A stretch of DNA of 64,000 nt from Verrucomicrobiota bacterium. GTDB taxonomy: Bacteria; Verrucomicrobiota; Kiritimatiellia; UBA8416; JABMPJ01. The stretch spans positions 101,896-165,895 of the forward strand of contig JABGQM010000001.1 of assembly GCA_018648805.1 (NCBI GenBank). The letters are read 5' to 3'. The notes under the pieces were generated by a model. That model was not told where the DNA came from, ran no database searches, and saw only the letters and a program-made list of their open reading frames with translations. A program made the translations under genes and the position numbers. Shown here piece after piece: positions 31,245 through 54,408 of this stretch. How positions within the stretch are numbered: the first letter of the stretch is position 1; each line of letters opens with the position of its first letter.

Positions 31245-31256
31245 AGGATTGCAGCC

Positions 31257-37909: not shown

Positions 37910-37937
37910 TAGTAAGAGCTGAAAGCTGAAAGATAAA

Positions 37938-39614
37938 ATGGTGCACACGCAGGAAGAGCTAAAGCTGATTCTGGAGAACCTGATTGCTTCATGGGAGAAC
38001 GAGGTCGTTGAGTTCAAACGGGCTGGGGATGACTACAGCACGGACAAGATCGGCAAGTATCTCTCCGCTTTGGCGAATGAGGCCAATCTGCGGGGCATCG
38101 AACGCGCATGGCTGGTTTTCGGCGTCGACGACAAGTCGCGCCAGGTGGTTGGCTCAGACTACCGCCCCGAAACGGAACGTTTGCAGTCAATCAAGATGCA
38201 GATGGCGGAAAATACGGAGCCGAGTGTCACCTTCCGAAATGTGCATGAAGCCGTGTTTGTCGAAGGTCGGGTTGTTATGTTTGAGATTCCGGCCGCCCCC
38301 CGGGGAATTCCTATTGCATGGAAAGGCCATTGCTATGCGCGCGCCGGGGAGAGTCTGGTTGCGCTGGGCTTGGACAAGCAGGATGAAATCCGGAATCAAA
38401 CGGCGGCCACGGATTGGTCCGCTCAGCCCGTTCCCAGCGCGACAGTTGACCATCTCGATCCGCAAGCTGTCGCAACGGCTCGTCGTTCATTTACACAGAA
38501 ATACGCTAATCGGTTTGACAAGGAAACGGTAGATGGATGGTCCACATCGACGTTTCTTGACCGTGCCCGGTTGACTCAGGGCGGAGCGATTACCCGTACT
38601 GCGCTTCTGTTGTTGGGTAAGGCGGAGGCAGCACACCTTTTGTCCCCGCATCCGGTGCAGCTGACATGGAAGCTGCAGGGGGCTGAACGCGCCTATGAAC
38701 ATTTTGGGCCTCCCTTTCTGTTAAGCTCCAGTGCGTTGTATCAGCGTATCCGCAATGTGCAGGTCCGGGTGTTACCGGATGATGAGCTTTTGCCGGTTGA
38801 AGTTTCAAAATATGATCAGCGCGTGGTTCTTGAAGCCCTGCATAACTGCATTGTTCACCAGGACTATGCGCGCAATGGGAGGGTCATTGTCACCGAGATG
38901 CTGGATAAGCTTGTGTTTGAGAATGAGGGTGATTTCTTCGAGGGGAAGCCCGAGGACTATATTGCGGGTGAAAAGACCCCGAGTCGCTACCGGAATCCAT
39001 TTCTTGCCCAGGCGATGGCGGAGCTGAACATGATCGACACCATGGGCTATGGTATCCACGATATGCATATGGGACAGGTGAAACGCTTCTTCCCGCTCCC
39101 GGACTACGACTTGGGCAAGCCCAATTCGGTGCGAGTGATCCTCTACGGAAAGGTGGTCGATCCTGCCTATACACGACTGCTTATCCGGAACACCGATCTG
39201 CCTCTGGCCGATGTGTTGGCCTTGGATCGGGTCCAGAAAGAACTCCCTGTAGAGGATGCCACTGTTAGGCGATTACGTAGAGCGGGCATGATCGAAGGTC
39301 GGCGGCCGAACCTGCATATTGCCGCAAAATTGGCAGAAGCAACGGGAACAAGAGCTGCATATATAAAGACTAGAAGGCAGGACGATGCCTACTACGCCAA
39401 ACTCGTTACGGATTTCTTGAGACAATATGGCACAGCTACCCGTAAGGATATGGATGATCTGCTGCTGAACAAGATCAGCGACGGGCTAACGCACCAGCAG
39501 AAAAGGAACAAGGTACACAACCTTCTTGGCAAATGGAAAACTCAGGGCTTGATTGAGAACCAGGGCGGACGGGGTAATGGAGCTCTGTACGCTTTGATAA
39601 GTGATGACGAATAA
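37938..39614 (+). CDS. AlbA_2 (divergent AAA/Schlafen-like DNA-binding) + HATPase_c_4 + C-terminal HTH protein (RecG-C-terminal-like; RM-associated accessory)
   Basis: N-terminal ENEVVEFKRAGDD…LVFGVDD (AlbA_2 signature); HNCIVHQDY (HATPase_c_4 signature); 29 bp downstream of the MTase. Confidence 0.75.
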   Translation: MVHTQEELKLILENLIASWENEVVEFKRAGDDYSTDKIGKYLSALANEANLRGIERAWLVFGVDDKSRQVVGSDYRPETERLQSIKMQMAENTEPSVTFRNVHEAVFVEGRVVMFEIPAAPRGIPIAWKGHCYARAGESLVALGLDKQDEIRNQTAATDWSAQPVPSATVDHLDPQAVATARRSFTQKYANRFDKETVDGWSTSTFLDRARLTQGGAITRTALLLLGKAEAAHLLSPHPVQLTWKLQGAERAYEHFGPPFLLSSSALYQRIRNVQVRVLPDDELLPVEVSKYDQRVVLEALHNCIVHQDYARNGRVIVTEMLDKLVFENEGDFFEGKPEDYIAGEKTPSRYRNPFLAQAMAELNMIDTMGYGIHDMHMGQVKRFFPLPDYDLGKPNSVRVILYGKVVDPAYTRLLIRNTDLPLADVLALDRVQKELPVEDATVRRLRRAGMIEGRRPNLHIAAKLAEATGTRAAYIKTRRQDDAYYAKLVTDFLRQYGTATRKDMDDLLLNKISDGLTHQQKRNKVHNLLGKWKTQGLIENQGGRGNGALYALISDDE

Positions 39615-39842
39615 TCAAACGAACGGCCGCATCTATCAAACGAGAATCAAACGGATTGGCGTAAGTGCTTATGTATCGGATGGTTGTGGTTTGCTTGATG
39701 GAGCGAACTAAGGTGTGTGCGATAGCAAATGGGGGCGGTTTACACGGATGCAGTATGCGCCTATAAGCTGGGAGCGGATTGCCCTACACAGAAGTACCGG
39801 CTCACGGCCAAAGGCCGCGAAGTCTAGGAGAGGAAGAGCCCG

Positions 39843-42800
39843 ATGCTGATCACGAATATAAGCGAAGAGAACAGCTTGCTGACGCGGTTGGATCATCTAA
39901 TCGCGGAGAGCGAGGAGATGCGGGTTTTAGTGGGGTTCTTCTATTTCTGGGGAATCAGTGCCCTGCATGGCGGCTTGAGCAAGAACAAGGATTTTAAGGT
40001 TAAGATACTGGTGGGGCTGCAAGCGGAGGAGCATGCGGGGAAGATTGTTGAATTTGCGGGCGAACAGAGCCCGGAGATGACGGATGAAGAGCGGCGTTCG
40101 GGCTTCCTTGCAAGCCTGCGGTCAGTGATGCGAAGCCGCGAGGTTGATACGCAGAAATACTATGAACGAGTCTCGTTGTTTGTCGACCTGGTGAAGTCGG
40201 GGCAGATTGAAATCAAGAAGCCGCGCGAACCGAACCACGCGAAGCTGTATCACTATACACTGAAGAAGGGGCTGGCGCAGACACTGGACCGCAAGTACTG
40301 CTGGATTACGGGTAGCAGCAACATGACACGGCCCGGGCTGCTGGAGCAGAACGAGCTGAATGTGCAGCTTCTGGACTTTGGCGGCGAGGAGGCGAAGCAG
40401 TTCTTTGATGCACTGTGGAAGACCGCCGTGCCTTTGACCGACGATCCGGCCACCAAACAACGAATCATTGAAATGGTGGATGGCGATGAATCGCTCTTGG
40501 CCTCTGTTACTCCGTTCGAAGCATACGCGCTAGTCCTGAAGAACTACTTGGAACATCGCGATCTTTCCGACAGAACTCCGTCAATCGAGCGCGTTCTTGC
40601 TGAGCCGAAGGATGACGATGATGACTGCAAATATCGACCCTTGAGTTTTCAGGTGGATGCGGTCAATCAGGCCCTTTCGATCTTGCGTGAATACAATGGC
40701 GTGATCATTGCGGATGTGGTGGGTCTGGGTAAATCCGTGATGGGTAGCGTACTGGGCCGGGTGAATGGAAAACGGGGCATTGTGATTGCGCCACCGGGAT
40801 TGGTGGGAGATCAGAGCACAGGAACCGGCTGGTGGGGGTATCTGGAGGATTTCGGGCTGCATGACTGGCGCGCTGTTTCGCGCGGGAAACTGGATGAGGT
40901 ACTGGATCTCGTCAACCGCCAACGCGATTTCGAACTGGTTGTGGTAGACGAAGCACACTATTTTCGAAATCAGGACAGCGAGGATTATCACTATCTTTCG
41001 CAGATTTGCCGTGGCAAACAGGTTGTGTTGATGACGGCAACGCCCTACAGCAATCGCCCGAGCGATATGCTCTCACTTCTCAAACTGTTTACCCCCGCCC
41101 GACAATCGCTCTTGACTCCCGACGGGAATCTGGAAGCGCTGTTTCGAGGGTATCAGATTCAATACAACCGGGTTGACTACGTGTTGAAGCACCTTGAAAG
41201 TCCCGACCGTGCGGACAAAGTTGAGAGTCACTTGCGGAAGCTCGGCATATCGCTCGATGTCACGCAGGGGAACTACAAGAAGATCCGCCATGAGGTCAAG
41301 GCGCTCTGCAAAGGTTTGGCGCAGGAAATCCGGCAGGTGGTTGAACCGGTGATGATCCGCCGCAACCGGCTGGATCTGAAAGGCGATCCGGATTACGCGG
41401 GAGAAGTTGGCCAGAACCTGCCGACGATGCACGATCCGGTAGAGCAGTTCTACGAGCTGTCGCCAGAACAGAGCGAGTTCTACGATTTGGTCATCAGTGA
41501 GTATTTCGGCGAAGACAGCGCGTTTACGGGTGCGATTTATCAGCCCGGCGCCTATATGCCCGACCGGGCAGATGTGGACGCGGAGGCCGAAGAAGACGTG
41601 GGCGACTCTCGAGCGCTGGCCAATACCCAGCAGCGTAACATGTACAAGTTCATCCGCCGCTTGCTCGTGCGGCGTTTCGAAAGCTCATTCGGAGCTTTTG
41701 CCAACACGCTGGACAACCTGATTCGTGTGCACAGGAACGTAAGGCGGTTGGCCGTGCCCGCCCCGCTTGGCCGGGGGTTAATCGTCTTGGACCGTACGTT
41801 GATGGACAAGTTGGCGAATATGGAGAACGCATCTGACGAGGAAATCACCGAGATACTTCAGCGTCAGGAAGATCTGTTGAGTCCCGATGAGCTGGAAAAG
41901 CAACAGCGCAACCTACAAGTGTTCAGGGTTTCAGAGGATTTCGACGACGCAGGACGGGAGCAGTTCAATGCGGACCTACGAGCAGATATTCAGTTGCTGG
42001 AAAAGGTGAAAGCAGAAGTCGAGGCGCTCGACCTGATCGCCGATGATCCGAAGGCCCGAAAACTGATCGACGAGATTGAGGCGGTCCTTGCCGGGGAGCA
42101 CCCCGAACTCATCAGTGTTTCCAACGAACCACAACGGAAGATCCTCGTCTTCAGCGAGTTCGGTGACACTGTGAATCACCTGAAGGTGTATCTTGATGCC
42201 AAGTTCCCCGATCAGGTGTTGACCGTCCGCTCGCTGAGCAAAGGAGTTGCAAAAACGGTCCGCCAGAATTTTGATGGAGCCTGCAATCCTGGGTTGCAGC
42301 AAGATCAATACAAGGTCCTACTCGCAACCGATAAGATGTCCGAGGGATTGAACCTGAATCGCGCCGGATTGGTTATTAATTATGATATTCCGTGGAATCC
42401 GACGCGGGTGATCCAGAGAGTTGGGCGTATCAACAGAATCGGCACCAAAGTGTTTGATGATCTCTATCTGTTCAACTTCTTTCCGACCGAACAAGGCAAG
42501 GATCAGCACAATGTTCGGCAAATCGCGTCCAACAAGATGTTCATGATTCATGCATCAATCGGTGAAGATGCGAAGATTTTCGATACGGATGAGGAGCCGA
42601 CCCCGGCGGGGCTGTTCGAGAAGCTGAGCAGGAATCCCGACGAACTCGAAGAAGAGAGCTTTCTCACGCAGGCGAAGCGCGAGTGGGCTGAGATCCGCAA
42701 GAAGCATCCAGAGGTTGTCGAGAAGATCGGCAAGCTGCCAGGTCGCGTCAAGACCACGCAGCAGAGATCACCGGAAGGGGTCTACATGTTTGCTCGCAAG

Positions 42801-43280
42801 GGAATGACTCTGTTTGCCCTATGGCAACAGGTTGCGGGTGAAGAAGCAGAGATCGCTCACCTTTCGCTGCATGATGCCATAACCGCGATTAGATGTCCGT
42901 TTGATGCCAGGCCGGGCAAGCAGGTTGCGGACACGTTTTGGCCAAGCTATGAGGCTCTACAGGAAAGCCTGACCGATCGGCGGCATGCAAATCCACCGGG
43001 AGCAACGTCCCTAATCACCAAAGCACGCAACGTGCTTGCGACAGCGATTGGCAGCGGATCTGGTGGCTCTTTCGTGAAGATACTGCTGGACGATCTCCAG
43101 AATTGCGGCACTCTTTCAGATCGGACCTTGCGGAAGCTCATTGATGCCTCACGGGACAGCAAGGCGTTTGCGAAACTGATCAAGCAGCTTGAAACTGAAA
43201 TGGGGGCGGATTACCTGAATGCCATCAAGACGCGGATGCCACCCAATGAGGTGGTCATAGCGTTTGAGCACCAACTGTAA
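39843..43280 (+). CDS. PLD-family nuclease :: SNF2/SF2 helicase fusion protein
   Basis: N-terminal HxK…GSxN PLD motif (NHAKLYHY…ITGSSNMT); Walker A DVVGLGKSVMG, DEAH box VVVDEAHYFRN, helicase-C motif VI QRVGRINRIG; ~300-aa C-terminal extension. Confidence 0.85.
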   Translation: MLITNISEENSLLTRLDHLIAESEEMRVLVGFFYFWGISALHGGLSKNKDFKVKILVGLQAEEHAGKIVEFAGEQSPEMTDEERRSGFLASLRSVMRSREVDTQKYYERVSLFVDLVKSGQIEIKKPREPNHAKLYHYTLKKGLAQTLDRKYCWITGSSNMTRPGLLEQNELNVQLLDFGGEEAKQFFDALWKTAVPLTDDPATKQRIIEMVDGDESLLASVTPFEAYALVLKNYLEHRDLSDRTPSIERVLAEPKDDDDDCKYRPLSFQVDAVNQALSILREYNGVIIADVVGLGKSVMGSVLGRVNGKRGIVIAPPGLVGDQSTGTGWWGYLEDFGLHDWRAVSRGKLDEVLDLVNRQRDFELVVVDEAHYFRNQDSEDYHYLSQICRGKQVVLMTATPYSNRPSDMLSLLKLFTPARQSLLTPDGNLEALFRGYQIQYNRVDYVLKHLESPDRADKVESHLRKLGISLDVTQGNYKKIRHEVKALCKGLAQEIRQVVEPVMIRRNRLDLKGDPDYAGEVGQNLPTMHDPVEQFYELSPEQSEFYDLVISEYFGEDSAFTGAIYQPGAYMPDRADVDAEAEEDVGDSRALANTQQRNMYKFIRRLLVRRFESSFGAFANTLDNLIRVHRNVRRLAVPAPLGRGLIVLDRTLMDKLANMENASDEEITEILQRQEDLLSPDELEKQQRNLQVFRVSEDFDDAGREQFNADLRADIQLLEKVKAEVEALDLIADDPKARKLIDEIEAVLAGEHPELISVSNEPQRKILVFSEFGDTVNHLKVYLDAKFPDQVLTVRSLSKGVAKTVRQNFDGACNPGLQQDQYKVLLATDKMSEGLNLNRAGLVINYDIPWNPTRVIQRVGRINRIGTKVFDDLYLFNFFPTEQGKDQHNVRQIASNKMFMIHASIGEDAKIFDTDEEPTPAGLFEKLSRNPDELEEESFLTQAKREWAEIRKKHPEVVEKIGKLPGRVKTTQQRSPEGVYMFARKGMTLFALWQQVAGEEAEIAHLSLHDAITAIRCPFDARPGKQVADTFWPSYEALQESLTDRRHANPPGATSLITKARNVLATAIGSGSGGSFVKILLDDLQNCGTLSDRTLRKLIDASRDSKAFAKLIKQLETEMGADYLNAIKTRMPPNEVVIAFEHQL

Positions 43281-43308
43281 CAGGTCGTAAGTAACGAGGA
43301 GGGGAAGA

Positions 43309-43818
43309 ATGAGCAAGACAGGCAAATGCAAGAAGGCGGATCAGAGCCTAAAAGCCCTGGATGCGCAGGTCGCTGCGGTTACGGAGCATCTGATCTGTGT
43401 GTACGATGTTCTGGCCGGGATATGCAAAAAGAAACCCAAAGCTAAGTCACACACAAGGGTTCAGGAATTGAAGCAGCTTCCGGTAAAGCAAGGTGGGCTG
43501 GATTTCTATATCCAGTTTGCCCTCGTAGCAGATGATGCGGAAATAGAAGGCGCAATTGTTTACGGAGCATCCCGAGAACCTTGTTATCCAAATTCTCTTT
43601 GGCCGAATCCCGACAAGAAGCAACAGGAACGACCTCTAGCGTGTTTCTTTCTTGATTCCCTCGGAAAGGTCAGCATCAAAGGTAAATTGCAGGATGAGTG
43701 GTGGCTTACTGGCACAGAAGCAGATACCCAGGCAGCAGTTGAAGAAATGCACTATCGCGTCCTTGATATGATTTGGCGTGATGCATTGAACTGGACAAAC
43801 GAGCCACTCTTGCCCTAG
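43309..43818 (+). CDS. hypothetical protein (169 aa) in the island operon
   Basis: RBS GGAGGGG; no recognisable motif; AT-richer composition than the genome. Confidence 0.5.
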   Translation: MSKTGKCKKADQSLKALDAQVAAVTEHLICVYDVLAGICKKKPKAKSHTRVQELKQLPVKQGGLDFYIQFALVADDAEIEGAIVYGASREPCYPNSLWPNPDKKQQERPLACFFLDSLGKVSIKGKLQDEWWLTGTEADTQAAVEEMHYRVLDMIWRDALNWTNEPLLP

Positions 43819-43831
43819 CGGAGAAGGATTC

Positions 43832-45409
43832 ATGGAAAAGCTAACAGTACTGTCCCTCCTAAATAAATATCAGACATGGGTCAGAAATGGCGACATACAG
43901 TTTCTACCGAAAGCCTCTGAAGCCCAGAAAACCATCCTTGATCTTCTCGCCGAGCTTATTCCTGATTTCGAATTGGCAGGCGCGCAGGAGGGGGGGCTGA
44001 GCAAGAACCTTGACTGGTATAAAACACACGCGAAAGGCCGGAAGCTGTGGCAGGAACTTGTTAGCGCCTCTCTGAATAGCATAGACCCAGATTCCAAGGG
44101 AAATTCCACGCTGTTCGACTATCTAGAGAAAGCGACTCTCTTTGAGGATGTCTTGTATGGTCTTGAGGAGTACTACCGCGATCATACGCTTCACTCAATT
44201 TGGGTCTATTTGATAGGGGAATACATGCTCAGGGATCACCTCTCGGATGTCCGCAGTAACCTGAACTGGTATCTTTACAACGATTTTGAGAGTGAGAAGG
44301 CGTCCTACAAGCGGGATCTGATGCGCTACGCTCGTAAGAAGGAGCAGGATATTCGTGCTCAGGTAAACGAGAAACAAGATGCTGTTTGGTGCATCATGGC
44401 CCTTTGTCATGATTTAGGATACTCCCCCGCCAAGTTGAACAAGATCAATGATCGTGTCAGGGACGTTCTGAAGTTCTTTGATCTGCCGGAATTCAAACAA
44501 GTGGGGTATTCGCTGGATCTTGAGCAGCAGTTTCTCGTATCGCAAGTCCTTGAAATGATGGCTATGGATGTGCGCATCGTTCCGAGCGAGAATTACAGAG
44601 ATCCAGAAGTTGATACCGACGAAAAAGTGAAAATCAGAGGGTATCGTGATGACGCAACATACTGGCGCCTCTGCCGTGCTCTCGAGAAGCGACAGCATGG
44701 GATTCTAAGTTCCTATCTCCTTTACAAACTTGTCGGGTTGTTCGCCGAGTCGTGGGTTCGCGGGACCGGGGAAGAATGGGGACTTGAGGATTCTGAAGTG
44801 GTGGAGAATATCATTCGAGGTGACATTCTTTTTGCTATTGCGCAACATGAGTTCGATTATGCCCACATGAATCAGGTGGGAAGCCTCGCGGAAATCTTGT
44901 TCATTGCTGACGAGCTTGAGGAGTTTTCCCGGTATGGACGGCAACTTCTATCGCGGGAATACTCAGATACCACGGCTGAGACCGCCATAGAATTCACACC
45001 ACAAAACCCGAAACAGGGCGAGGATGTGGAGATCAATATTCTTTATGATTATGACACATCGCGAGGTCTGGCTGATTACTTCAACTTTTTCTGGCGAAAG
45101 GCGCAACGCCTCTGCACCGTCTATTCGCTTGATCTGGAAAAGGGTAGCGAGAGGTACTGTACAATCAACCGAGTCAAGATAACCGTCGCACGCGAGCGGC
45201 ACGAATTCTTCTTTGAGCTTCGCAAGGGAGCAGAGAACAAGAACAAGGGCTTCTTGCCTAGGACGAAGATTGGCCCTGTAGACTATGAAGAGGGAGAGTA
45301 CCTCCTCTCGTGCACGGATGACCGAATAGATGTGCTGACGAAGAACGGAAAAGTGAACCTGAAGGATTGGTGCAAGGATGCGGACAAACAGTACTCGTCA
45401 GCATCTTGA
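43832..45409 (+). CDS. putative HD-domain phosphohydrolase-like protein
   Basis: Candidate HD-superfamily motifs RDHTLHS and MALCHDLGY (cf. LLHDIGK); spacing longer than canonical; lowest-GC gene of the island. Confidence 0.4.
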   Translation: MEKLTVLSLLNKYQTWVRNGDIQFLPKASEAQKTILDLLAELIPDFELAGAQEGGLSKNLDWYKTHAKGRKLWQELVSASLNSIDPDSKGNSTLFDYLEKATLFEDVLYGLEEYYRDHTLHSIWVYLIGEYMLRDHLSDVRSNLNWYLYNDFESEKASYKRDLMRYARKKEQDIRAQVNEKQDAVWCIMALCHDLGYSPAKLNKINDRVRDVLKFFDLPEFKQVGYSLDLEQQFLVSQVLEMMAMDVRIVPSENYRDPEVDTDEKVKIRGYRDDATYWRLCRALEKRQHGILSSYLLYKLVGLFAESWVRGTGEEWGLEDSEVVENIIRGDILFAIAQHEFDYAHMNQVGSLAEILFIADELEEFSRYGRQLLSREYSDTTAETAIEFTPQNPKQGEDVEINILYDYDTSRGLADYFNFFWRKAQRLCTVYSLDLEKGSERYCTINRVKITVARERHEFFFELRKGAENKNKGFLPRTKIGPVDYEEGEYLLSCTDDRIDVLTKNGKVNLKDWCKDADKQYSSAS

Positions 45410-45424
45410 ATAGGTGAGATCTTT

Positions 45425-45802
45425 ATGGCGGGGAAAGTATACGGCTACGAGCTGATTCTGGATCTTCACGGTTGTGATGTGTCTACATTCAACCGCGAGA
45501 GTCTTGATAGCTATTTTGAGAAGCTCTGCAAGGCGATCAAGATGGTGAAGTGTGAGCGGTATTTCTGGGATGACGTCGGCGTCCCTAAGGAGGAGCAGCA
45601 AACTTCCCCGCATACGAAAGGCACGTCGGCGGTGCAGTTCATCCTGACTAGCACTATTGTGATTCATACACTGGAACTGATGGAAGCGGCCTACATAAAT
45701 ATTTTCTCCTGCAAAGAGTATGATGCAGGAGTGGCGGAGCAAATAACACGAGAGTGGTTTGGTGCAGAAGAATGCAAGACGCACTTTATCGAGAGGATCT
45801 GA
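45425..45802 (+). CDS. SpeH-like pyruvoyl-dependent S-adenosylmethionine decarboxylase family protein (small AdoMetDC fold)
   Basis: Colinear with bacterial SpeH: GYELILDLHGCD ~ GRHVISELWGCD; FILTSTIVIHTLELMEAAYINIFSCK ~ [26 protein letters not shown]; processing Ser retained but the flanking ES-H is T-S-T. Confidence 0.6.
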   Translation: MAGKVYGYELILDLHGCDVSTFNRESLDSYFEKLCKAIKMVKCERYFWDDVGVPKEEQQTSPHTKGTSAVQFILTSTIVIHTLELMEAAYINIFSCKEYDAGVAEQITREWFGAEECKTHFIERI

Positions 45803-45803
45803 C

Positions 45804-47180
45804 ATGCAATTGGTAGAGAAAGAGATACTGATCCCGGCACGCGATAACCAAGATGGACTTCTTGAGTATCTTGGCCAGGCGGTGGCCGCTGGCCTGAATG
45901 GCGATGAGATTCCCGTACGTGTTGCCGTTACGCGGACGGACAGTGAAGGATATCACTGTGAAGTGGGCATTCTCTCTGGAGTTGATCACTCCAAAGCCGA
46001 GAGTATTGAGTCGATGTTTGACCTTCGCCGCCGTGAATATGAAAACAACCAGGATTTCAATGCGGCGCTATTGGTTCCCACTGGAATAGGGGCGGAGATC
46101 GGTGGTCATTCGGGAGACGCTGGGGCCGTTGCACGGCTGATGGCCGCGAGCTGTGACAATCTCATTACGCATCCCAATGTCGTCAACGCCGCCGACATCA
46201 ACGAGTTGCCGGAGAACGGTCTCTATGTTGAAGGAAGTGTCATTTCCCGGCTGATGATGGGCACTGTCGGTTTACAGAAGGTCCGGTCAAATCGCGTGAT
46301 GATGATTGTGGATCAACACACTGACAAGATGTTCCATGAACTGTCCATCAACTCGGCCTCTGCCGCCCGTGCGGCCTTGGGACTAGACTGTCCTCTCGTA
46401 GTGAAGATGGAAGACCGTATTCTGATGCGTGCGTTGTTTTCAAAGTCAGGACGCGCTGTTGGCCAAATCGAGTTTCTGGAGTACCTATGCGAGGTGCTGG
46501 AAGAGCACCGGTCTGAATATGATGCCGTTGCCCTCACCTCGTTGATCAGTGTGCCAGAGCGTTTCCATAGCGACTACTTCGATAAGGACTCTGACATGGC
46601 TGTCAACCCGTGGGGCGGTGTTGAAGCCATGCTGACGCACGCTATCTCGATGCTATTTAACGTGCCATCAGCACATTCCCCCATGATGACATCGTCCGAA
46701 GTTATGAATCTGGATGTTGGCATCGTGGATCCCCGGAAATCGGCAGAGGCCGTTTCATCCACATATCTGCACTGTATTCTCAAGGGGCTGCACCGCAGCC
46801 CGCGGGTTGTGCCAGACATACCAATCCATGGCGATCCGGGGCTGTTGACTGTTGCGAACGTATCTTGTCTCGTGATTCCAGATGGGTGTGTTGGGTTGCC
46901 AACACTTGCGGCACTTGAGCAGGGCATCCCTGTTATTGCCGTCAAGGAGAACAAGAACTGCATGCGGAACCGGCTGGAAGATCTGCCCTTCGCACCAGGC
47001 AAACTCTTCATCGTTGAAAACTACCTTGAGGCCGCTGGCATCATGACGGCTCTAAGAGCAGGTGTTGCAGTGGACACTGTCCGCCGCCCCTTGGCGGATA
47101 CTGTGGTTGTGAACGCTCGCCGCCAGCACCATACAGAGTTTGCTCCGGCCGCAACCGAAGAGCGCACCTCGAGGGTGTGA
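45804..47180 (+). CDS. conserved hypothetical protein (458 aa), translationally coupled to the SpeH-like gene
   Basis: TGA-C-ATG coupling with the upstream gene; glycine-rich segment VPTGIGAEIGGHSGDAGAVARLMA and C-terminal VIPDGCVGLPTLAAL suggest Rossmann/SLOG-like folds (speculative). Confidence 0.5.
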   Translation: MQLVEKEILIPARDNQDGLLEYLGQAVAAGLNGDEIPVRVAVTRTDSEGYHCEVGILSGVDHSKAESIESMFDLRRREYENNQDFNAALLVPTGIGAEIGGHSGDAGAVARLMAASCDNLITHPNVVNAADINELPENGLYVEGSVISRLMMGTVGLQKVRSNRVMMIVDQHTDKMFHELSINSASAARAALGLDCPLVVKMEDRILMRALFSKSGRAVGQIEFLEYLCEVLEEHRSEYDAVALTSLISVPERFHSDYFDKDSDMAVNPWGGVEAMLTHAISMLFNVPSAHSPMMTSSEVMNLDVGIVDPRKSAEAVSSTYLHCILKGLHRSPRVVPDIPIHGDPGLLTVANVSCLVIPDGCVGLPTLAALEQGIPVIAVKENKNCMRNRLEDLPFAPGKLFIVENYLEAAGIMTALRAGVAVDTVRRPLADTVVVNARRQHHTEFAPAATEERTSRV

Positions 47181-48187
47181 TGAACAGGACGTTGGGATAC
47201 ATTCTTCTGTTGGGGGCTCTGCTCTCTCTCACTCCCGGCGTTTGCTCGGCTCGGAACCCGATCAGTGATTTCATGGCATCCATACGATATCGTCGGGCCT
47301 ATCAGCATGCCTGCGATGCGCATGCCTGTAAGCAGTCCGAGGACTACGATGGTGCCATCAAGAGTGCCTCGAAAGCGATCAAGGCGAACCGCGGGTATCG
47401 ATATGCGTACGAACTCCGTGCCGTGTGTTACTCGCACAAGGGCAACTTCAAGTTGGCTTTGGCCGACTGTAACACGGCCGCCGGTCTCAAGCCTTCCACC
47501 TCCTATATCTACACGCTGCGGGCAAGGGTGCATTCTGCCCTTGGCAACGACATGGCGTGTATTGCCGACTGTGACCAGGCGATCTCTCTAGACCCCAAGA
47601 GCGCTTATAGTTACGGGCTGCGCGGCTGGGTCAAGATGGGGCAGGGCCATCATGAAACGGCCATCAAGGATTTCGATACGAGCATCTCTCTGCAGGATGA
47701 CGAGGGCAAGACCTACTTCTGGCGGGCACGCGCCCTGGCGGCCACCGACAACTTCGAGGCTGCCTTGAAGGATCTTGAGTCGGGCGCCGCGCTGGACGGC
47801 TGGAACCATCACGCCTACCTGATGCGGGCACGGGTCCATGCCGACATGGGGTCCATCGCGAAAGCCATTGAGGATTGTGACCGGGCCATGGCGGCGGCAG
47901 AGGATTCACCAGAGCCCCTCAACACCAAAGCCTATATGCTCTGCACCATGCCCGATGAGAAATGGCGCAACGGTACGGAGGCATTGAAGTTGGCGCAACG
48001 CGCCTTGGAAATCTGCGGGGAGCGCCCCGCGCATATTCTGGATACCCTCGCCTGTGCCTACGCTGAGCTGGGCCGGTTTGACGAGGCCATCGCGGTTCAG
48101 CAGGAGGCCGTGAAGAAGCGTCCGGAGCACGCCGTTCTGCTTGAGCACATGGAGGCCTTCAAAGCACGCCGTCCCTGGCGGGAGTAG
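47180..48187 (+). CDS. secreted TPR-repeat protein
   Basis: Signal peptide then Cys-rich N-terminus and multiple TPR-like repeats; start overlaps the upstream stop (TGATG). Confidence 0.6.
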   Translation: MNRTLGYILLLGALLSLTPGVCSARNPISDFMASIRYRRAYQHACDAHACKQSEDYDGAIKSASKAIKANRGYRYAYELRAVCYSHKGNFKLALADCNTAAGLKPSTSYIYTLRARVHSALGNDMACIADCDQAISLDPKSAYSYGLRGWVKMGQGHHETAIKDFDTSISLQDDEGKTYFWRARALAATDNFEAALKDLESGAALDGWNHHAYLMRARVHADMGSIAKAIEDCDRAMAAAEDSPEPLNTKAYMLCTMPDEKWRNGTEALKLAQRALEICGERPAHILDTLACAYAELGRFDEAIAVQQEAVKKRPEHAVLLEHMEAFKARRPWRE

Positions 48188-48322
48188 GGAATTGAACCGC
48201 CTTGTGGGGCATTCATTCACTTCTTCCAGAGCTTCAAGCCCCATTGTTCTCACGTGGAGTTTCGCGTTGGAATCCCATTCTGTTCTGTAACTGCCTATCG
48301 CCATAATGGTAGGAAGATCGGC

Positions 48323-49156
48323 ATGAATATTGAATTAGGAGACAAGCAGCATCTTACCAGCTATCGTAAGATTGCGATTGCGAGCTGGCGGCATCCACGC
48401 AATCCGGAGACCTATACCATGTTGGATCTGCCGGTGGAGCCAGCTCTGGCGTTTCTTGAAACGTTGGAATCCGAGGTGCCGCTGACGCTCACGCATTTCG
48501 TAACGAAGGTTGCGGCACACTGTCTGGATCGCTATTCCGAGCTTAATCATGTCCTGAGGCTGGGCAACCTGTACAAGCGTAAGCATATCGATATCTTCAT
48601 CACAACGCTGTTGAAGACGGCACGGGGTAAAGATCTCTCCGGGTTTGTCATTCGCGATGCAGACAGAACATCCATTGCGGAGGTCGCGAGTATAGCCAAA
48701 GCACGCGCCTATGACCTGCGCCAGAACCGAGACCGGGAGTGCCTGAAAGTGCAGCGAATAGTGGATCCGCTCCCGTCGTGGATTCTGAGGCCTTTGCTCC
48801 TGGTTCAAGAATGTCTGCAGTTCACGCTCAATATAGCGCTGCCGGCGGTGGGCATGCCGAAGGATCGTTTCGGATCAGCCATGATCACTAACATCGGCGC
48901 GCTCGGTATTGAGAATGCCTTCATCCCGCTTTCACCGTACTCGCGCTGTCCCCTTCTGATCGGGATTGGAAAACCGCGCAAGGTGCCGATTGTACGTGAT
49001 GACCAGGTCGTTGCAGGAAACTCCGTGATGATCACCTTCACGTTCGACCACCGCTACGCTGACGGCGCGCACGGCTCGCATCTCATGCGGCGCTTCAAGA
49101 AGATCTTCGCCGATCCTGAGGCATTCAGGTCTATTTTTGAAGAGGAGCGTGCTTAG
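48323..49156 (+). CDS. standalone 2-oxoacid dehydrogenase E2-type acyltransferase catalytic-domain protein (CAT-like fold)
   Basis: DHRYADG catalytic His-Asp motif near the C-terminus; no lipoyl or E3-binding domains. Confidence 0.55.
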   Translation: MNIELGDKQHLTSYRKIAIASWRHPRNPETYTMLDLPVEPALAFLETLESEVPLTLTHFVTKVAAHCLDRYSELNHVLRLGNLYKRKHIDIFITTLLKTARGKDLSGFVIRDADRTSIAEVASIAKARAYDLRQNRDRECLKVQRIVDPLPSWILRPLLLVQECLQFTLNIALPAVGMPKDRFGSAMITNIGALGIENAFIPLSPYSRCPLLIGIGKPRKVPIVRDDQVVAGNSVMITFTFDHRYADGAHGSHLMRRFKKIFADPEAFRSIFEEERA

Positions 49157-49260
49157 GTGCCAACATGCAAGGAGTAGGGCGGGGCTTATGCTCCGATCAG
49201 TTTTGTCGCCTTCGCGGCCACCTCATCGTCTCGCAGGTCGCTCTCACTCTAACGCACCGT

Positions 49261-50652
49261 TTAGACGTGAGAAGGCATCAGCCCCACGGGGTGTGTGCCA
49301 TCACTGGGCACGGTGGCCTCGGTCGTGGAGGGGATGCCGTCGCACATGTTGGCGGGGGTGTTGCGGCGTAGGGCTTTGAGACCGTAGAAACCGTTCATGC
49401 AGAGTGTCATCAAGAAGGCACCCAGTCGCAGCCGATGGGTCGATCGAAGAAGACGGCCGACACAGTGGCGCAGTGAGAAGGCCTTGGTCCATAGCTGGCG
49501 GTGTGCTTCTTTCAGCTCATCCGCGTCCATGTTAGCCGGCGTGAAGGCGACATTGAACCCGTTGTAGAACTCCCATCCGCGCTGCGGTATGAGACGCCCC
49601 TCCTGCTCAAAGGTGTCGTGTAGCGCGGTGCCTTTGAACGGGGTCAGAATGCTGAGAAAAGGAACGTCGACACCGATGTCAAATAGCTGATCGCTCATCG
49701 CAACGATGCTGGCCGGGGTGTCGCTGTCGAAGCCGGCGATGAAGCCAGCCATCACGCAGATCCCACGCTCATGAAGGAGCGCAATGCAGCGTCGGTACTC
49801 CTCAATACGGTTATGTTGCTTATGTGCTTGCTGGAGTGCGTTCTGATGGAAAGACTCGATGCCGAGGAAGATTCCTATGCAGCCGGATTCCTGCATGAGA
49901 TCAAGCAGTTCTTCGTCGCGTGCGATATCGATGCTGGCCTGGGTGAGCCACCACTTCTTGTGCGGAATCATGGCGCGCAACAGCTCCTTGGCGTAACGCC
50001 GGTCGGCCAGCAGGTTGTCGTCCCAGAACCAGACCAGCTTTCGCTGCCACCATCGCTTGAAGTGATTGTAGGTGATGTCACGCATGACGTCGGCGACCGG
50101 GCGCATGCGAAACCCGGGGTTGAGACTCGGAACCGAACAGAACGAGCAGGAGAAGGGACATCCGCGCGTGGCTTGAACCACCCGCTTCACAAAGAAGGCG
50201 TCCGGCAGCAAGTCATAGCGAGGGGAGGGGAGCCCCTCCATCGCACATGGCCCCCCGACATAGCGCGCTTTCAGCAGCCCCTTCTCTGCATCGGCGATCA
50301 TCGCCTGCCATACGGCTTCTGCCTCTCCAATCACGATGGAGTCGAACACGCGCGCGGCCTCGTCCTCGCAGAATGTCACATGGGGGCCACCCCCTATGAC
50401 GGTCTTCCCGCGCCGTTTGAACTCGGCGGCGATCCTATAGGCCGCTGGCGCGAATCCGCTCTGTGTCGAAATGGCGATCAGATCCGCATCGCTGTCGAAC
50501 GGAATCGGCTCCACCTTCTGGTGAATCACGCGGACCTCGTGCTGTGGTGGGGTCAAGGCCGCAAGATGGATCCCCGTCAGTGGCGGGACGAAGGTACGCA
50601 GGTGGCCTTTGCGGTAGCGCGGAATGTAGGCGACGATGATGTCAATTTGCAT
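49261..50652 (-). CDS. B12-binding-domain radical SAM protein
   Basis: N-terminal B12-binding Rossmann region; CxxxCxxC (CPFSCSFC) radical SAM cluster motif; start taken at MQIDII. Confidence 0.8.
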
Positions 50653-51108
50653 GATGAGCTCCTTGCTTTGTGCGGTTCTCTGTGGTTCCAAGAGAGACGA
50701 GTATCATACCGCAAAGCACTTTGCAATACAAAGTGACAAAGAAATGCCGGGTACCTTCAAGAGGTAATACCTGGACCCCCTGCCGGTTCATCCGGCAGGA
50801 GTCAAAGACTGTCAGTCAACCGATGTGATCTCAAGACCTTCTGCGGCTGGCAGCGCGAGGAAAGCCCTGTGGGCCAGACTCGCACCAGACAGCCGCAGGT
50901 TCTGCTTTACCTCTTCTCTATAGACGGGGAATCTTTTGCACCTGCCGGGTAAACCGGCAGGGGGCATTCGGCAGCCATTAACAGGTGAACATTCCCGGAA
51001 TCTTGGCGGGTGTGGCAGTCCGAAATGGAAGATGGATCTAAGACTGGGGCATCGAGTTCCGTCTACTCTGTAGAGACCCAACGGCGGATCTGACTGAAAG
51101 GAGACATC

Positions 51109-52680
51109 ATGTCGACTGAATATGAGGCGTTGCGTGAGTTGATGGCGAGACACGGATTGCTTTCACTGTTCACGAAGCGGTCGCTGCGCGAGCGGATCCA
51201 CAGAGTGCGCGCAGGACTGAAGGCGGAGAAGGGGAGCGGCGAATACAAGTATGCGCGGCTGCAACTGGTTCGTCTCTCGGCGCCACTGAGCGCCGTCATG
51301 GTGCCGCTGCTGGCGGTCCTACTCCTGACGCTCCTGGCCCGGGCCATTCCTGAACACAGCTCTAGCATGATCGTGGAGATGATCCCGGAGGAGCCCGCAC
51401 CCGAGCCTCTCGATCCGAACGTCGAGGTGGAGATAGATCCCCTCGAGACGCCTACGCCGACTGACGTCGAGACTTTGCCGGACACCCCCATGACCGTCGA
51501 TGAACCGAATGTGTTGGACACGCCGGCGGTAGAACCGGTCGCCGACATCGTCGAGCGCTTCACGGTGGACCTGACCCGGAGCCCCGTGTATTTTCCGGGA
51601 CCCTTTGGGCCACGCGGCGACCCCGGTGGCCGCGACGAGGCGATGGAGACGTTCGATGCGCCCGGCAATACGGAAGACGCCGTGATACGGGCACTGCGTT
51701 GGCTGCAGGCGGAACAGCTGCCGGACGGCTCGTGGGCCAAGACCAAGCCGGCCATGACGGGCCTGGCGCTGCTGGCTTTTCTGGGGCATGGTGAAAAACC
51801 TGAATCTGAAGCCTATGGCGAGACGGTGTTGAAAGCGATCCAGTGGCTCGTGAACAATCAAGAATCAAGCGGCCTCTTCAGAGGGCGCGATGGTCACAAC
51901 TACAGCCACCCGATTGCGACCTACGCCCTGTGTGAGGCCTTTGCGCTGACACAGGTGCCGATGGTACGCGAGGCAGCCGAGAAGGCGTTGGCCGTTGTGG
52001 TTGAGGGACAGCACTCCAGCGGCGGGTGGGACTACAACTGCAAACAGTCGACGCGCGATGATACCTCCTATATGGGGTGGTGCGTGCAGGCGTTGAAGGC
52101 GGCCAAGATGGGCGGCTTGGAGCATCCCGGTCTCGATGCGGCCATGGCACGCGCCGTGAAGGGCATGCAGAAGAACGCACATCCGCAGGGCGGATTCGGC
52201 TACACCCGTCCGGGGCAGGGCGGGTTGACCGGTGTGGGCGTGCTCTGCATGCAGATGCTTGGCGCCGGCCATGAACCGGAGGCGCGGCGCGGGTTGGCGA
52301 ACCTCCTGCAGACGGCAACCTTCGACTGGCAGAAGCCGTGGGGCGGCTCGCCAATGTATTACTGGTACTACGCCACGCAAGCCCACTTTTTTGCGGGAGG
52401 CAGCGCCTGGGAGAAATGGAATCCGGGTTTTGCCCATCAACTGGTCCGTGGCCAGACGGTGCTGAGATCCCAGGCCGAGGGCGAGAAGAATATGGGCTAC
52501 TGGGACTCTCCCGGTCAGAAAGAGCACAGCGACGGCCGCGTGCAGGACACCTGCCTGGCCACCCTCCAACTCGAAGTCTACTACCGCTACCTGCGCACCC
52601 AGCAGCGCCCTGGTGAAAGAGAAGAGGAGAACGACTTGGCCACCGGCCAGAAAGAGGTAAAAGTTCAGATTGTGATCTGA
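51109..52680 (+). CDS. membrane-anchored prenyltransferase/squalene-oxidase-repeat (terpenoid cyclase-fold) protein
   Basis: TM anchor, Pro/Glu-rich linker, repeated QW-like motifs (LPDGSW, SGGWDY, QGGFGY). Confidence 0.7.
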   Translation: MSTEYEALRELMARHGLLSLFTKRSLRERIHRVRAGLKAEKGSGEYKYARLQLVRLSAPLSAVMVPLLAVLLLTLLARAIPEHSSSMIVEMIPEEPAPEPLDPNVEVEIDPLETPTPTDVETLPDTPMTVDEPNVLDTPAVEPVADIVERFTVDLTRSPVYFPGPFGPRGDPGGRDEAMETFDAPGNTEDAVIRALRWLQAEQLPDGSWAKTKPAMTGLALLAFLGHGEKPESEAYGETVLKAIQWLVNNQESSGLFRGRDGHNYSHPIATYALCEAFALTQVPMVREAAEKALAVVVEGQHSSGGWDYNCKQSTRDDTSYMGWCVQALKAAKMGGLEHPGLDAAMARAVKGMQKNAHPQGGFGYTRPGQGGLTGVGVLCMQMLGAGHEPEARRGLANLLQTATFDWQKPWGGSPMYYWYYATQAHFFAGGSAWEKWNPGFAHQLVRGQTVLRSQAEGEKNMGYWDSPGQKEHSDGRVQDTCLATLQLEVYYRYLRTQQRPGEREEENDLATGQKEVKVQIVI

Positions 52681-52730
52681 TGGCCGGTTGAGGTAGTGTG
52701 AGCGGAAAGCGGAAAGCAAAGGAGACCAAG

Positions 52731-53228
52731 ATGAGACCTCATCAGTCGTGGATCGGGAGACTAGTCGTGCTTGCAAGTGCCGTCGCGCTCTGCCTGCCTG
52801 TTGCAGCAGCGGACCATAAGGAACTGAAGGCGTTTCCGCCTGCGAAAGAAGGCATGAAACGTCTCGTCATCGTGCTGCCGCACAAGGAGCGTGGCGAAGA
52901 AGATGCTTTCAAGGTCGAGATCGTCGCCGGCAAGACGATGCTGACCGATGGGGTCAACCGGATGCGACTCGGAACCGCCATTGAAGCTCGTCCCCTCAAA
53001 GGCTGGGGCTATACCTATTATGACGTCACGGGATCCGGGCACGCTATGAGTACGATGATGGCTCCGCCACCGGGGACCCCCAAGGTCAAGCGCTTTGTGG
53101 CGGGCACCTCCCTGACGATCCGGTACAACAGCCGTCTGCCCATCGTGGTCTACGCACCCCCGGAGTACGAACTGCGCTATCGGATTTGGAAGGCGCCGCA
53201 GCGCTTCGAAACGGTCAACAACGGGTAG
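52731..53228 (+). CDS. eco: ecotin-family serine protease inhibitor (periplasmic)
   Basis: Strong colinearity with E. coli ecotin: KEGMKRLVI, KGWGYTYY, STMMAPPPG, RYNSRLPIVVYAP, RYRIWKA; signal peptide. Confidence 0.85.
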   Translation: MRPHQSWIGRLVVLASAVALCLPVAAADHKELKAFPPAKEGMKRLVIVLPHKERGEEDAFKVEIVAGKTMLTDGVNRMRLGTAIEARPLKGWGYTYYDVTGSGHAMSTMMAPPPGTPKVKRFVAGTSLTIRYNSRLPIVVYAPPEYELRYRIWKAPQRFETVNNG

Positions 53229-53807: not shown

Positions 53808-54107
53808 TCAGGCATGTAGAGGTGCAGCGTGCAGTTCGATGCCAAGAGCCTGAACCACTTTGAGAATTGTATCAAACCCCGGGGTTCGGTCACCGGAGAG
53901 GGCTTTATAGAGACTCTCCCGCGAGAGACCAGCATCCCTCGCAACTTGTGTCATGCCCTTGGCGCGAGCGATGTCACCGAGGGCCTTGGCGACGAACGAT
54001 GCATCGCCGTTTGACTCATCGAGGCACGCCTCAAGATAGGCGGCCATCTCTTCGGGGGTCCGAAGGTGCTCGGCCACGTCATATCGTGTGGTACTTGTCT
54101 TGCTCAT
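53808..54107 (-). CDS. HigA-family addiction-module antidote (HTH antitoxin)
   Basis: ~100 aa with an HTH and the conserved C-terminus of the putative addiction-module antidote family; immediately downstream of the toxin gene. Confidence 0.65.
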   Translation of the reverse strand: MSKTSTTRYDVAEHLRTPEEMAAYLEACLDESNGDASFVAKALGDIARAKGMTQVARDAGLSRESLYKALSGDRTPGFDTILKVVQALGIELHAAPLHA

Positions 54108-54117
54108 ATTCCTCCTC

Positions 54118-54408
54118 CTACAAGTTGCGCGATAGGCGCAACGCAGTGCTAATGTCCCGACTTTGGGTCCGCTTGTCACCACCGGCTAGCAATATGACCA
54201 ACGAGCGTCCTCGCTTCCTGAAATAGACCCGATAGCCGGGACCGTAATCAATGATCAACTCCGATACCCCTTCACCAACTGGCCTGACGTTTCCGGCATT
54301 GCCTGCGGCAAGTCGCTCGATCCTCGCAAGAACGCGAGCGCGTGCGCGTAGGTCGCGTAGGCCGTCAACCCACTTGGCAAATGTGGCCGTCTTACGGATT
54401 TCAATCAT
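54118..54408 (-). CDS. RelE/ParE-superfamily addiction-module killer toxin (HigB-like)
   Basis: 96 aa; typical N-terminus MIEIRKTATFAKW…; 10-bp gap to the antitoxin gene. Confidence 0.65.
   Translation of the reverse strand: MIEIRKTATFAKWVDGLRDLRARARVLARIERLAAGNAGNVRPVGEGVSELIIDYGPGYRVYFRKRGRSLVILLAGGDKRTQSRDISTALRLSRNL

Follow-up and report, generated by a model that had tools for sequence, protein, structure and literature searches.

A conserved pair of genes for a pyruvoyl-type decarboxylase and a DUF3326 protein, a candidate mobile polyamine-like module recurrently joined to defence genes

We analysed a 64,000-nt stretch of DNA from a Verrucomicrobiota bacterium (GenBank assembly GCA_018648805.1, contig JABGQM010000001.1; hereafter the window, along the whole of which all coordinates are numbered), in which two neighbouring genes encode a 125-aa homologue of S-adenosylmethionine decarboxylase (AdoMetDC) and a 458-aa protein of the family DUF3326. 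The two genes form a near-invariant pair, which in cellular genomes has recombined repeatedly with candidate defence effectors and which phages carry alone. The best explanation, held with about as much confidence as doubt, is that the pair constitutes a mobile two-step polyamine-like module functionally tied to defence effectors. In the window, the working unit is best explained as the four genes between 43309 and 47180, all of them open reading frames (ORFs) on the + strand:

43309-43818, + strand: 169-aa protein without a family match, upstream partner of the HD-fold gene
43832-45409, + strand: 525-aa protein, predicted metal-dependent phosphohydrolase of HD/PDEase fold with a C-terminal beta-rich domain; the partner that fills the variable 'effector slot' in the window
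45425-45802, + strand: 125-aa decarboxylase proenzyme, predicted to be pyruvoyl-dependent, of AdoMetDC class 1b fold and SpeDC-like (ornithine-type), assigned from PF02675 and residue alignment
45804-47180, + strand: 458-aa putative enzyme with an N-terminal beta-alpha-beta domain of ~86 aa and a DUF3326 core (PF11805); obligate partner of the decarboxylase

The 125-aa protein matches the Pfam family AdoMet_dc (PF02675) with an E value of 2e-14 and 54.2 bits (cutoff 25) across residues 10-124, which bears out the initial annotation of this DNA, where it had been called an AdoMetDC-fold homologue over its whole length. It falls below the cutoff of the NCBIfam SpeD equivalog TIGR03330 (26.4 versus 75.65 bits). 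In a phmmer alignment with the AdoMetDC of T. maritima, T75-S76-T77 lie over E62-S63-H64, and H81, C96 and S68 lie over H68, C83 and S55, respectively; the initial annotation was thus right to read T-S-T in place of E-S-H, with the Ser and the downstream His kept. In the T. maritima enzyme, S63, H68 and C83 are essential for processing and catalysis (PMC10407285). A search of a collection clustered at 90% identity retrieved 3,314 decarboxylase homologues at E <= 0.001, the best 120 of which are 77-100% identical, and the motif F(I/L)LTS(T/S)IV(I/V)H occurs in 119 of these 120. An exhaustive search of 1.84 billion representatives at 50% identity gave 718 matches at E <= 1e-3, and residue conservation was counted over the best 150 of them: S76 is kept in 130/133, H81 in 129/130, C96 in 120/124, E9 in 128/137, Q71 in 121/136 and T75 in 120/135, with Glu at this last position in just 4. 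Both E-S-H and the Pro of HTWPE are missing, the window protein having T-S-T and HTLEL and the family consensus being T-S-(N/S/T) and HTL(D/E). The T-S-T site is a hallmark of the family, with a near-invariant T-S and a Gln at -5, and not a one-off.

These features match what is published as the mark of the SpeDC branch, which consists of AdoMetDC homologues in which pyruvoyl L-ornithine decarboxylase (ODC) activity replaces AdoMetDC activity (Li, Liang, Phillips and Michael, JBC 2023, PMC10407285). The residues diagnostic of the branch are Gln, Thr, Phe and Tyr, and the Pro is invariant only among true AdoMetDCs (PMC10407285). Validated ODC domains in Fig. S5 of that study read GFSLVQLIETSLVSGHFAN..AYIDIFSCNYYD (PMC10407285), and the equivalent stretch of the window protein reads SAVQFILTSTIVIHT..AAYINIFSCKEYD; our SpeDC reference sequences were read from this supplementary figure by optical character recognition, and we restored a few of the letters by hand. 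The window protein and the validated domains are alike in having Q at -5, T at -1, H at +5 and an AYIxIFSC..YD block. The spacing of Q71 and T75 to the pyruvoyl Ser is that of Q-L-I-E-T-S in the validated domains, and Y90 supplies the Tyr of AY(I)D/N-IFSC (91/127 representatives). By BLASTP, the window protein shares 41% identity (38.9 bits) with the ODC domain of a fusion protein versus 28% (25.8 bits) with the AdoMetDC domain of the same protein. A hidden Markov model (HMM) of the family gave the two ODC domains 50.6 and 20.0 bits, compared with 10.2 and 1.7 bits for AdoMetDC domains; the core of the T. maritima enzyme received 13.0 bits. This preference for validated ODC domains over true AdoMetDC domains makes a role related to S-adenosylmethionine (SAM) unlikely. 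Judged from its sequence, the 125-aa protein is most probably active as a pyruvoyl decarboxylase and belongs to the ornithine-type branch or to a sister of it.

The window family has in common with SpeDC proteins (PMC10407285; phage examples in PNAS 2023, PMC9992855) the class 1b size and fold, the Ser/His/Cys triad, the Gln at -5 and Thr at -1 of the pyruvoyl Ser, the AYI(D/N)IFSC..YD motif, an occurrence without SpeE, and a distribution that takes in the candidate phyla radiation (CPR), DPANN, Nitrospirota, Omnitrophota and phages and reflects spread by horizontal gene transfer. It differs in that the identity is just ~41% over a 49-residue core, an extra W-D...K-G insertion precedes that core, and the His is followed by T or A where the validated domains have F. 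The genomic context also differs: SpeDC genes as described cluster with speD/speE, casdh/casdc or hss, whereas the window family is found with DUF3326 and defence effectors.

The partner of the decarboxylase, the 458-aa protein, matches PF11805 almost from end to end (E 1e-87, profile positions 2-336 of 337). The PDB, searched by sequence and by profile with this protein and with the 525-aa protein, yielded nothing usable. To describe the genomic context of the pair, we used a cellular set of 82 loci, 79 of them from species-representative genomes and three from metagenomes. ORFs in these related loci were called with a crude longest-ORF picker, and locus anchors were set by tblastn or HMM because the picker sometimes took an antisense ORF over a small gene. 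A same-strand DUF3326 gene directly follows the decarboxylase in 74 of the 82 loci, the exceptions being mostly contig ends. A DUF3326-anchored scan of viral sequences found 61 loci and the decarboxylase adjacent in 54 of them, and the tight coupling that the initial annotation had proposed for these two genes is confirmed in cells and viruses alike. Spermidine synthase, which it had reported missing, was indeed not found among the window ORFs scanned around the module, nor among the commonest families of 60 scanned operonic neighbours of the cellular loci (neighbourhoods, not whole genomes).

The pair is present in more than 20 phyla, archaea and CPR included, and its hosts comprise Planctomycetota, Verrucomicrobiota, Desulfobacterota, Nitrospirota, Acidobacteriota, Bacteroidota, Gemmatimonadota, CPR phyla and DPANN archaea. 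Related loci from different phyla share identities of 70-86%, which is a signature of horizontal transfer. In three complete chromosomes assembled from metagenomes, the module is present twice, as separate copies (CP070827, L042/L061; OZ253559, L043/L067; OZ244626, L047/L063). Single ORFs that join the decarboxylase to DUF3326 were found only among the representatives (P0409, 562 aa; P0385, partial, 342 aa); they could be real Rosetta-stone fusions or sequencing or frame artefacts, a frame error being conceivable because the genes of the pair are spaced by 1-4 nt. Over-long homologue matches were also considered as fusions and rejected, as they are extensions or duplications.

DUF3326 is also conserved in cyanobacteria (PMC4284462), and the only functionally characterised protein of the family is PavB, described in a 2026 preprint. 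PavB and PavA are both required for the formation of bis(5-aminopentyl)amine, the precursor of pavettamine, and the decarboxylase domain of PavA is a pyridoxal phosphate (PLP) enzyme of the carboxynorspermidine/lysine decarboxylase type (bioRxiv 10.64898/2026.06.12.731819). As PavB acts in polyamine synthesis, the suggestion of the initial annotation that the AdoMetDC fold might here serve a non-polyamine use is not favoured. In both systems a DUF3326 gene adjoins the gene of a polyamine-family decarboxylase; PavB is needed together with its decarboxylase, and the product of PavA and PavB is a symmetric triamine. The likeness is drawn through the shared family assignment of PavB and the window DUF3326 protein rather than through an alignment with PavB itself. 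PavA differs in having an alanine-racemase-fold PLP domain inside a 1119-aa Rieske fusion, compared with a 125-aa pyruvoyl enzyme, and the pavettamine system has a third gene, pavC, is confined to Burkholderia sensu lato and lacks a defence context. A second parallel is with the homospermidine clusters of SpeDC and homospermidine synthase (HSS)/SpeY, in which a small pyruvoyl decarboxylase is likewise followed by a diamine-condensing enzyme and which also occur in CPR genomes and viruses. These differ from the window pair in their second enzyme, since no similarity of DUF3326 to HSS or deoxyhypusine synthase (DHS) was detected in either sequence or fold.

We next consider the genes joined to the pair in cells, whose types were derived by clustering all neighbouring ORFs in the related loci. 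The slot immediately upstream of the pair is variable in cellular loci and is occupied by one of several alternative genes. In ~33 loci these are the Septu genes PtuA and PtuB (PADLOC E 3e-53 and 1e-32, respectively). A membrane protein of ~400 aa with two N-terminal and three C-terminal hydrophobic helices (five transmembrane helices, 5-TM) is the partner in nine loci, and a PRMT-like arginine methyltransferase accompanies the pair together with a fusion of class III nucleotidyl cyclase and tetratricopeptide repeats (TPR) in five (L006, L009, L010, L013 and L058). HDOD proteins are also among the upstream partners, and further operonic neighbours include restriction-modification genes of type I, ISP and II, HD and HDOD. 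On a neighbour-joining tree of DUF3326, every partner type is scattered over at least four separate places, which shows repeated recombination and not a single ancestral accident.

The partner in the window, the 525-aa protein, has both the H...HD...D metal-binding motif and the helical fold of HD/PDEase proteins. Its homologues were found in eight further fetched loci, of which L001 and L002 seem to be one locus sampled twice, and the HD-fold gene adjoins the pair wherever both ends can be read. Three independently sampled homologues (from an archaeon, a Bacteroidales genome and one more) each have AdoMet_dc and DUF3326 downstream of them. The 169-aa protein had no match in family searches; its homologues immediately precede the HD-fold gene in L003, L004 and L078, and small proteins of 198-224 aa occupy the position of its gene in L075, L078 and L101. 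DNA methyltransferases flank seven HD-type loci (the window, L075, L078, L101, L020, L003 and L102), those of the other six loci being homologous or analogous to the enzyme in the window. SNF2 homologues were further seen close to the pair in L048, L058 and L062.

Searches of PADLOC-DB v2 gave no match at E <= 0.01 for the 125-, 458-, 525- and 169-aa proteins. Tblastn of ten proteins of the window island (34352-50691) never matched the PtuA/PtuB regions of the related loci, and PtuA/PtuB is accordingly not in that island. The Septu-associated loci resemble Septu and the retron-Septu hybrids (Retron-Eco7/Ec78), as ~33 of them join PtuA/PtuB in an operon with a second conserved module, just as the reverse transcriptase and its multicopy single-stranded DNA (RT-msDNA) do in the hybrids. 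They differ from the retron hybrids in that the companion consists of two metabolic-type enzymes and not of a reverse transcriptase, and the decarboxylase and DUF3326 are both outside PADLOC-DB v2; the window departs further from Septu in having an HD-fold protein in the slot, not PtuA or PtuB.

Some additional genes were observed at these loci. A synthase of 4-(hydroxymethyl)-2-furancarboxaldehyde phosphate (MfnB-like, PF04476, E 4e-37) lies beside PtuA on its upstream side, on either strand, in L018, L027, L033, L038, L050, L051 and L061; this aldolase of methanofuran biosynthesis was unexpected beside PtuA. A class III aminotransferase is found downstream of the operon in L038. The partner set of PRMT and cyclase-TPR fusion comes without an obvious nuclease.

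In viruses the pair has a different setting. The decarboxylase was found on 17 IMG/VR contigs, and the viral contexts are genuine, with terminase, portal and tail genes around the pair. The phage DUF3326 is a short form of ~335 aa, which lacks the N-terminal domain and keeps the invariant motifs. Across 77 viral loci there was no third conserved gene, the commonest neighbours being terminase (8 loci) and portal (5 loci), and none of the phage loci contained effector partners. Homing endonuclease genes lie between the decarboxylase and DUF3326 at 813-1592 in L088 and at 8380-8964 in L093 (NUMOD3, and GIY-YIG with NUMOD3, respectively), and in L093, a jumbo phage, the pair stands beside genes of NAD salvage. 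In the phage represented by L087, L089 and L103, a TET-associated glycosyltransferase and a kinase of 5-hydroxymethyldeoxyuridine (5-hmdU) DNA (PF18723, E 2.6e-50) are encoded 3-4 kb upstream of the pair (L087, 2248-4152), a hint that this phage could use the amine product for thymidine hypermodification. Tblastn searches of PLSDB plasmids and INPHARED phages with DUF3326 gave no match, and those with the decarboxylase gave only two matches of 29% identity, in huge phages.

The pair also stands alone in many cellular loci, which suggests that it has value without an effector. Several of these stand-alone pairs lie among translation genes, namely beside ileS in L024, beside aIF5B in L034 and within the str operon of a Ca. 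Moranbacteria (CPR) genome, where the order is rpsG, fusA, an 88-aa ORF, decarboxylase, DUF3326 and tuf (L077, 568-6678).

Turning to the arrangement in the window, the three ORFs reported initially (45425-45802, 45804-47180 and 47180-48187) all exist on the + strand. The stop codon of the decarboxylase gene (TGA, 45800-45802) was said to overlap the start of the DUF3326 gene; the two abut instead, with a single C between TGA and ATG. The overlap described for the DUF3326 stop and the start of the following TPR gene is real (TGATG). An in-frame TTG at 45759 would extend the 458-aa protein to 473 aa, and the ATG is favoured because the N-termini of homologues share the consensus MLL.EKEILIP. 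Upstream, the genes of the 169-, 525- and 125-aa proteins are strung together with gaps of 13 and 15 nt. The coupled gene set as first proposed holds for the decarboxylase and DUF3326; it had missed the 169-aa and 525-aa genes upstream and had included the TPR gene, which we reject as a member of the unit. The TPR gene was found in 0/82 loci (one unrelated 26% antisense match aside), and its GC content (0.597) and GC at third codon positions (0.73) resemble those of flanking host genes, compared with 0.49-0.55 in the module; it is an incidental neighbour at the island edge. The remaining features around the unit are:

34352-37909, + strand: 1185-aa type IIG-like DNA methyltransferase with Eco57I, TaqI_C and N6_Mtase domains (PADLOC REase_MTase_IIG, E 5e-56)
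37938-39614, + strand: 558-aa Schlafen/AlbA_2-HATPase_c_4 protein (Pfam), between the methyltransferase and the module
39843-43280, + strand: 1145-aa SNF2 helicase with a PLD-like N-terminus (Pfam; PADLOC matches of BrxH/DrmD/HmaA type, E 1e-31 to 1e-28)
47180-48187, + strand: secreted TPR protein (TPR families), adjacent host gene of host-like composition outside the module

The module (GC 0.49 versus 0.60 for the window) sits in a low-GC island with the type IIG methyltransferase, the Schlafen/AlbA_2 protein and the SNF2/PLD helicase, in agreement with the initial description of a defence-like island containing a methyltransferase. These three genes (34352-43280, +) immediately precede the module as a BREX/DISARM-like string, in which no complete known defence system was identified (the best PADLOC matches of the SNF2 protein being BrxH, HmaA and DrmD). 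A phage CII-like regulator (PF06892; 33470-33955, -) lies exactly where the GC content falls from ~0.60 to ~0.54 and may mark the left edge of the island. No tRNA gene was found anywhere in the window, so none marks an island edge, and a scan for promoters and terminators gave results at chance level only. Just beyond the low-GC island, a TerB-domain protein is encoded beside an SPFH/Band 7 protein (30132-32744, -). On the other side, a 300-aa protein (+) that matches a 2-oxoacid dehydrogenase acyltransferase domain in its C-terminal portion only faces a B12-binding radical SAM enzyme (-, PhpK/BchE-like) at 48254-50691; both were considered as operon members and rejected, not being conserved in the 82 loci. 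Further downstream are a secreted alpha-alpha toroid protein of the squalene-hopene-cyclase/prenyltransferase type followed by a homologue of ecotin, a serine-protease inhibitor (51109-53228, +), and a HigB/HigA-like toxin-antitoxin pair (53808-54408, -) in which the gene of a 96-aa Gp49/DUF891 toxin overlaps that of a 124-aa HI1420-type helix-turn-helix antidote.

In the mechanism that we propose, the 125-aa proenzyme would cleave itself between T75 and S76 to form its pyruvoyl cofactor, and the processed enzyme would decarboxylate an ornithine/lysine-type amino acid rather than SAM. By analogy with PavB, DUF3326 may then turn the resulting diamine into a symmetric, homospermidine-like triamine and so act as a non-homologous stand-in for the HSS of the SpeDC and HSS arrangement; it is the PavB data and the known clusters of SpeDC with HSS that suggest this order of diamine and triamine formation. 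The unit is mobile; it travels alone in phages, often beside terminase or portal genes, and is found among housekeeping genes in some CPR and DPANN genomes. In many bacteria it shares an operon with interchangeable effectors (PtuA/PtuB, the 5-TM protein, or the HD-fold protein with its small companion) inside islands rich in restriction-modification genes, where the product or the enzyme pair might control or complement the effector. The data establish the family assignments, the conserved catalytic residues, the constant pairing and its repeated recombination with effectors, and from these we infer self-processing, substrate, product and any action on the effector. Amine or polyamine chemistry is the best supported part of this proposal because polyamine precedents exist for both protein families, phages commonly encode polyamine enzymes and stand-alone copies occur in reduced genomes.

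Several points weigh against the proposal. Catalysis, both by this sub-family of decarboxylases and by DUF3326, is predicted from sequence. The diagnostic Phe of SpeDC has no visible match in the window protein, its position in the published set being uncertain; the residue after the His, T or A in the family and F in the validated ODC domains, is possibly that Phe. The family insertion, W48-D49...K65, is absent from validated ODCs, so the substrate may differ. The PavB precedent comes from a preprint, an operon that combines a polyamine pathway with nucleases would be without precedent, neither the membrane protein nor the PRMT/cyclase set fits a simple scheme, and the gene calls in the related loci stem from a crude ORF picker.

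The genomic data can be read in other ways. The pair might provide metabolite-gated immunity of a guard or toxin-antitoxin-like kind, its amine serving as an 'all is well' signal in a new class of anti-phage system: the product or the complex would restrain toxic PtuAB, HD-fold or 5-TM effectors, takeover of the cell by a phage would lower the product and free the effector, and phages would counter with a pair of their own. We regard this as unlikely, and it could be a functional layer on top of the polyamine chemistry. PtuAB is already known as a modular effector that retron RT-msDNA restrains (PMC12640716, PMC12804668), and the partner repertoire here (ATPase with HNH, membrane protein, HD) is like the effector sets of retrons and toxin-antitoxin systems. 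That the HD-fold family was never seen apart from the pair, that phages have the pair only and never the effectors, and that the jumbo phage keeps it beside NAD-salvage genes are all consistent with such gating, whereas the stand-alone pairs of many cellular loci and the lack of an identified ligand-sensing domain in the partners argue against it, and it has to postulate that the effectors are toxic and that an amine regulates them. Alternatively, the pair could build or install an amine on DNA or RNA, with the adjacent nucleases restricting unmodified nucleic acid and the phage copies serving anti-restriction, much like the 7-deazaguanine or thymidine hypermodification genes of phages. A conserved core with swappable nucleases and solitary copies in cells and phages is the typical pattern of modification and restriction, and the methyltransferases beside the seven HD-type loci and the 5-hmdU DNA kinase and TET-associated glycosyltransferase of phage L087/L089 would suit this idea. 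We nevertheless consider it unlikely: the hypermodification genes are confined to one phage lineage and no third gene recurs in the viral loci, restriction enzymes are not what the membrane protein and the PRMT/cyclase set represent, small-molecule polyamine synthesis offers precedents for both protein families, and one pair lies inside the str operon of a CPR genome. The product may gate the effectors, protect the host or modify nucleic acid.

Two simpler accounts fare worse. Ordinary housekeeping polyamine genes might by mere chance have come to lie inside or beside a defence island, which would accommodate the pairs among translation genes, and the polyamine precedents of the two families apply to it equally. 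It is improbable given that the same three partner families, each at four or more independent places in the tree, recur in the same-strand slot immediately upstream, that the HD-fold family is exclusive to the pair, that the 70-86% identity across phyla indicates horizontal spread and that the module is so much poorer in GC than the window. The least supported reading, and to us a very improbable one, is that of the initial annotation, in which the 125-aa protein is a true SAM decarboxylase or other SAM consumer that alters the pool of SAM or decarboxylated SAM beside SAM-dependent methyltransferases. The Pfam family name and fold agree with it, DNA methyltransferase neighbours recur, and without SpeE any decarboxylated SAM would have a non-polyamine fate; yet the protein scores far under the SpeD equivalog cutoff, lacks both E-S-H and the HTWPE Pro that is invariant in true AdoMetDCs, scores in favour of ODC domains and carries diagnostics of SpeDC, a branch whose validated members have ODC activity in place of AdoMetDC activity.

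Returning to the mobile polyamine-like module, we found no prior description of an association of the pair with defence in the searchable literature, and the link between a unit that phages carry alone and the anti-phage nuclease modules to which it is repeatedly wired in bacteria was not found described. If the proposal is true, the pair represents a new and very widespread two-enzyme route to a polyamine-like compound that needs neither PLP nor SAM, and DUF3326 gains a role. If the pair does act as a gating signal, it would be the first polyamine-gated immune system and would give DUF3326 a biochemical function. The repeated operonic joining of the pair to Septu nucleases and to an HD-fold protein, and its occurrence on its own in at least 54 phage contigs, suggest a tie between polyamine-type metabolism and the conflict between phages and their hosts.

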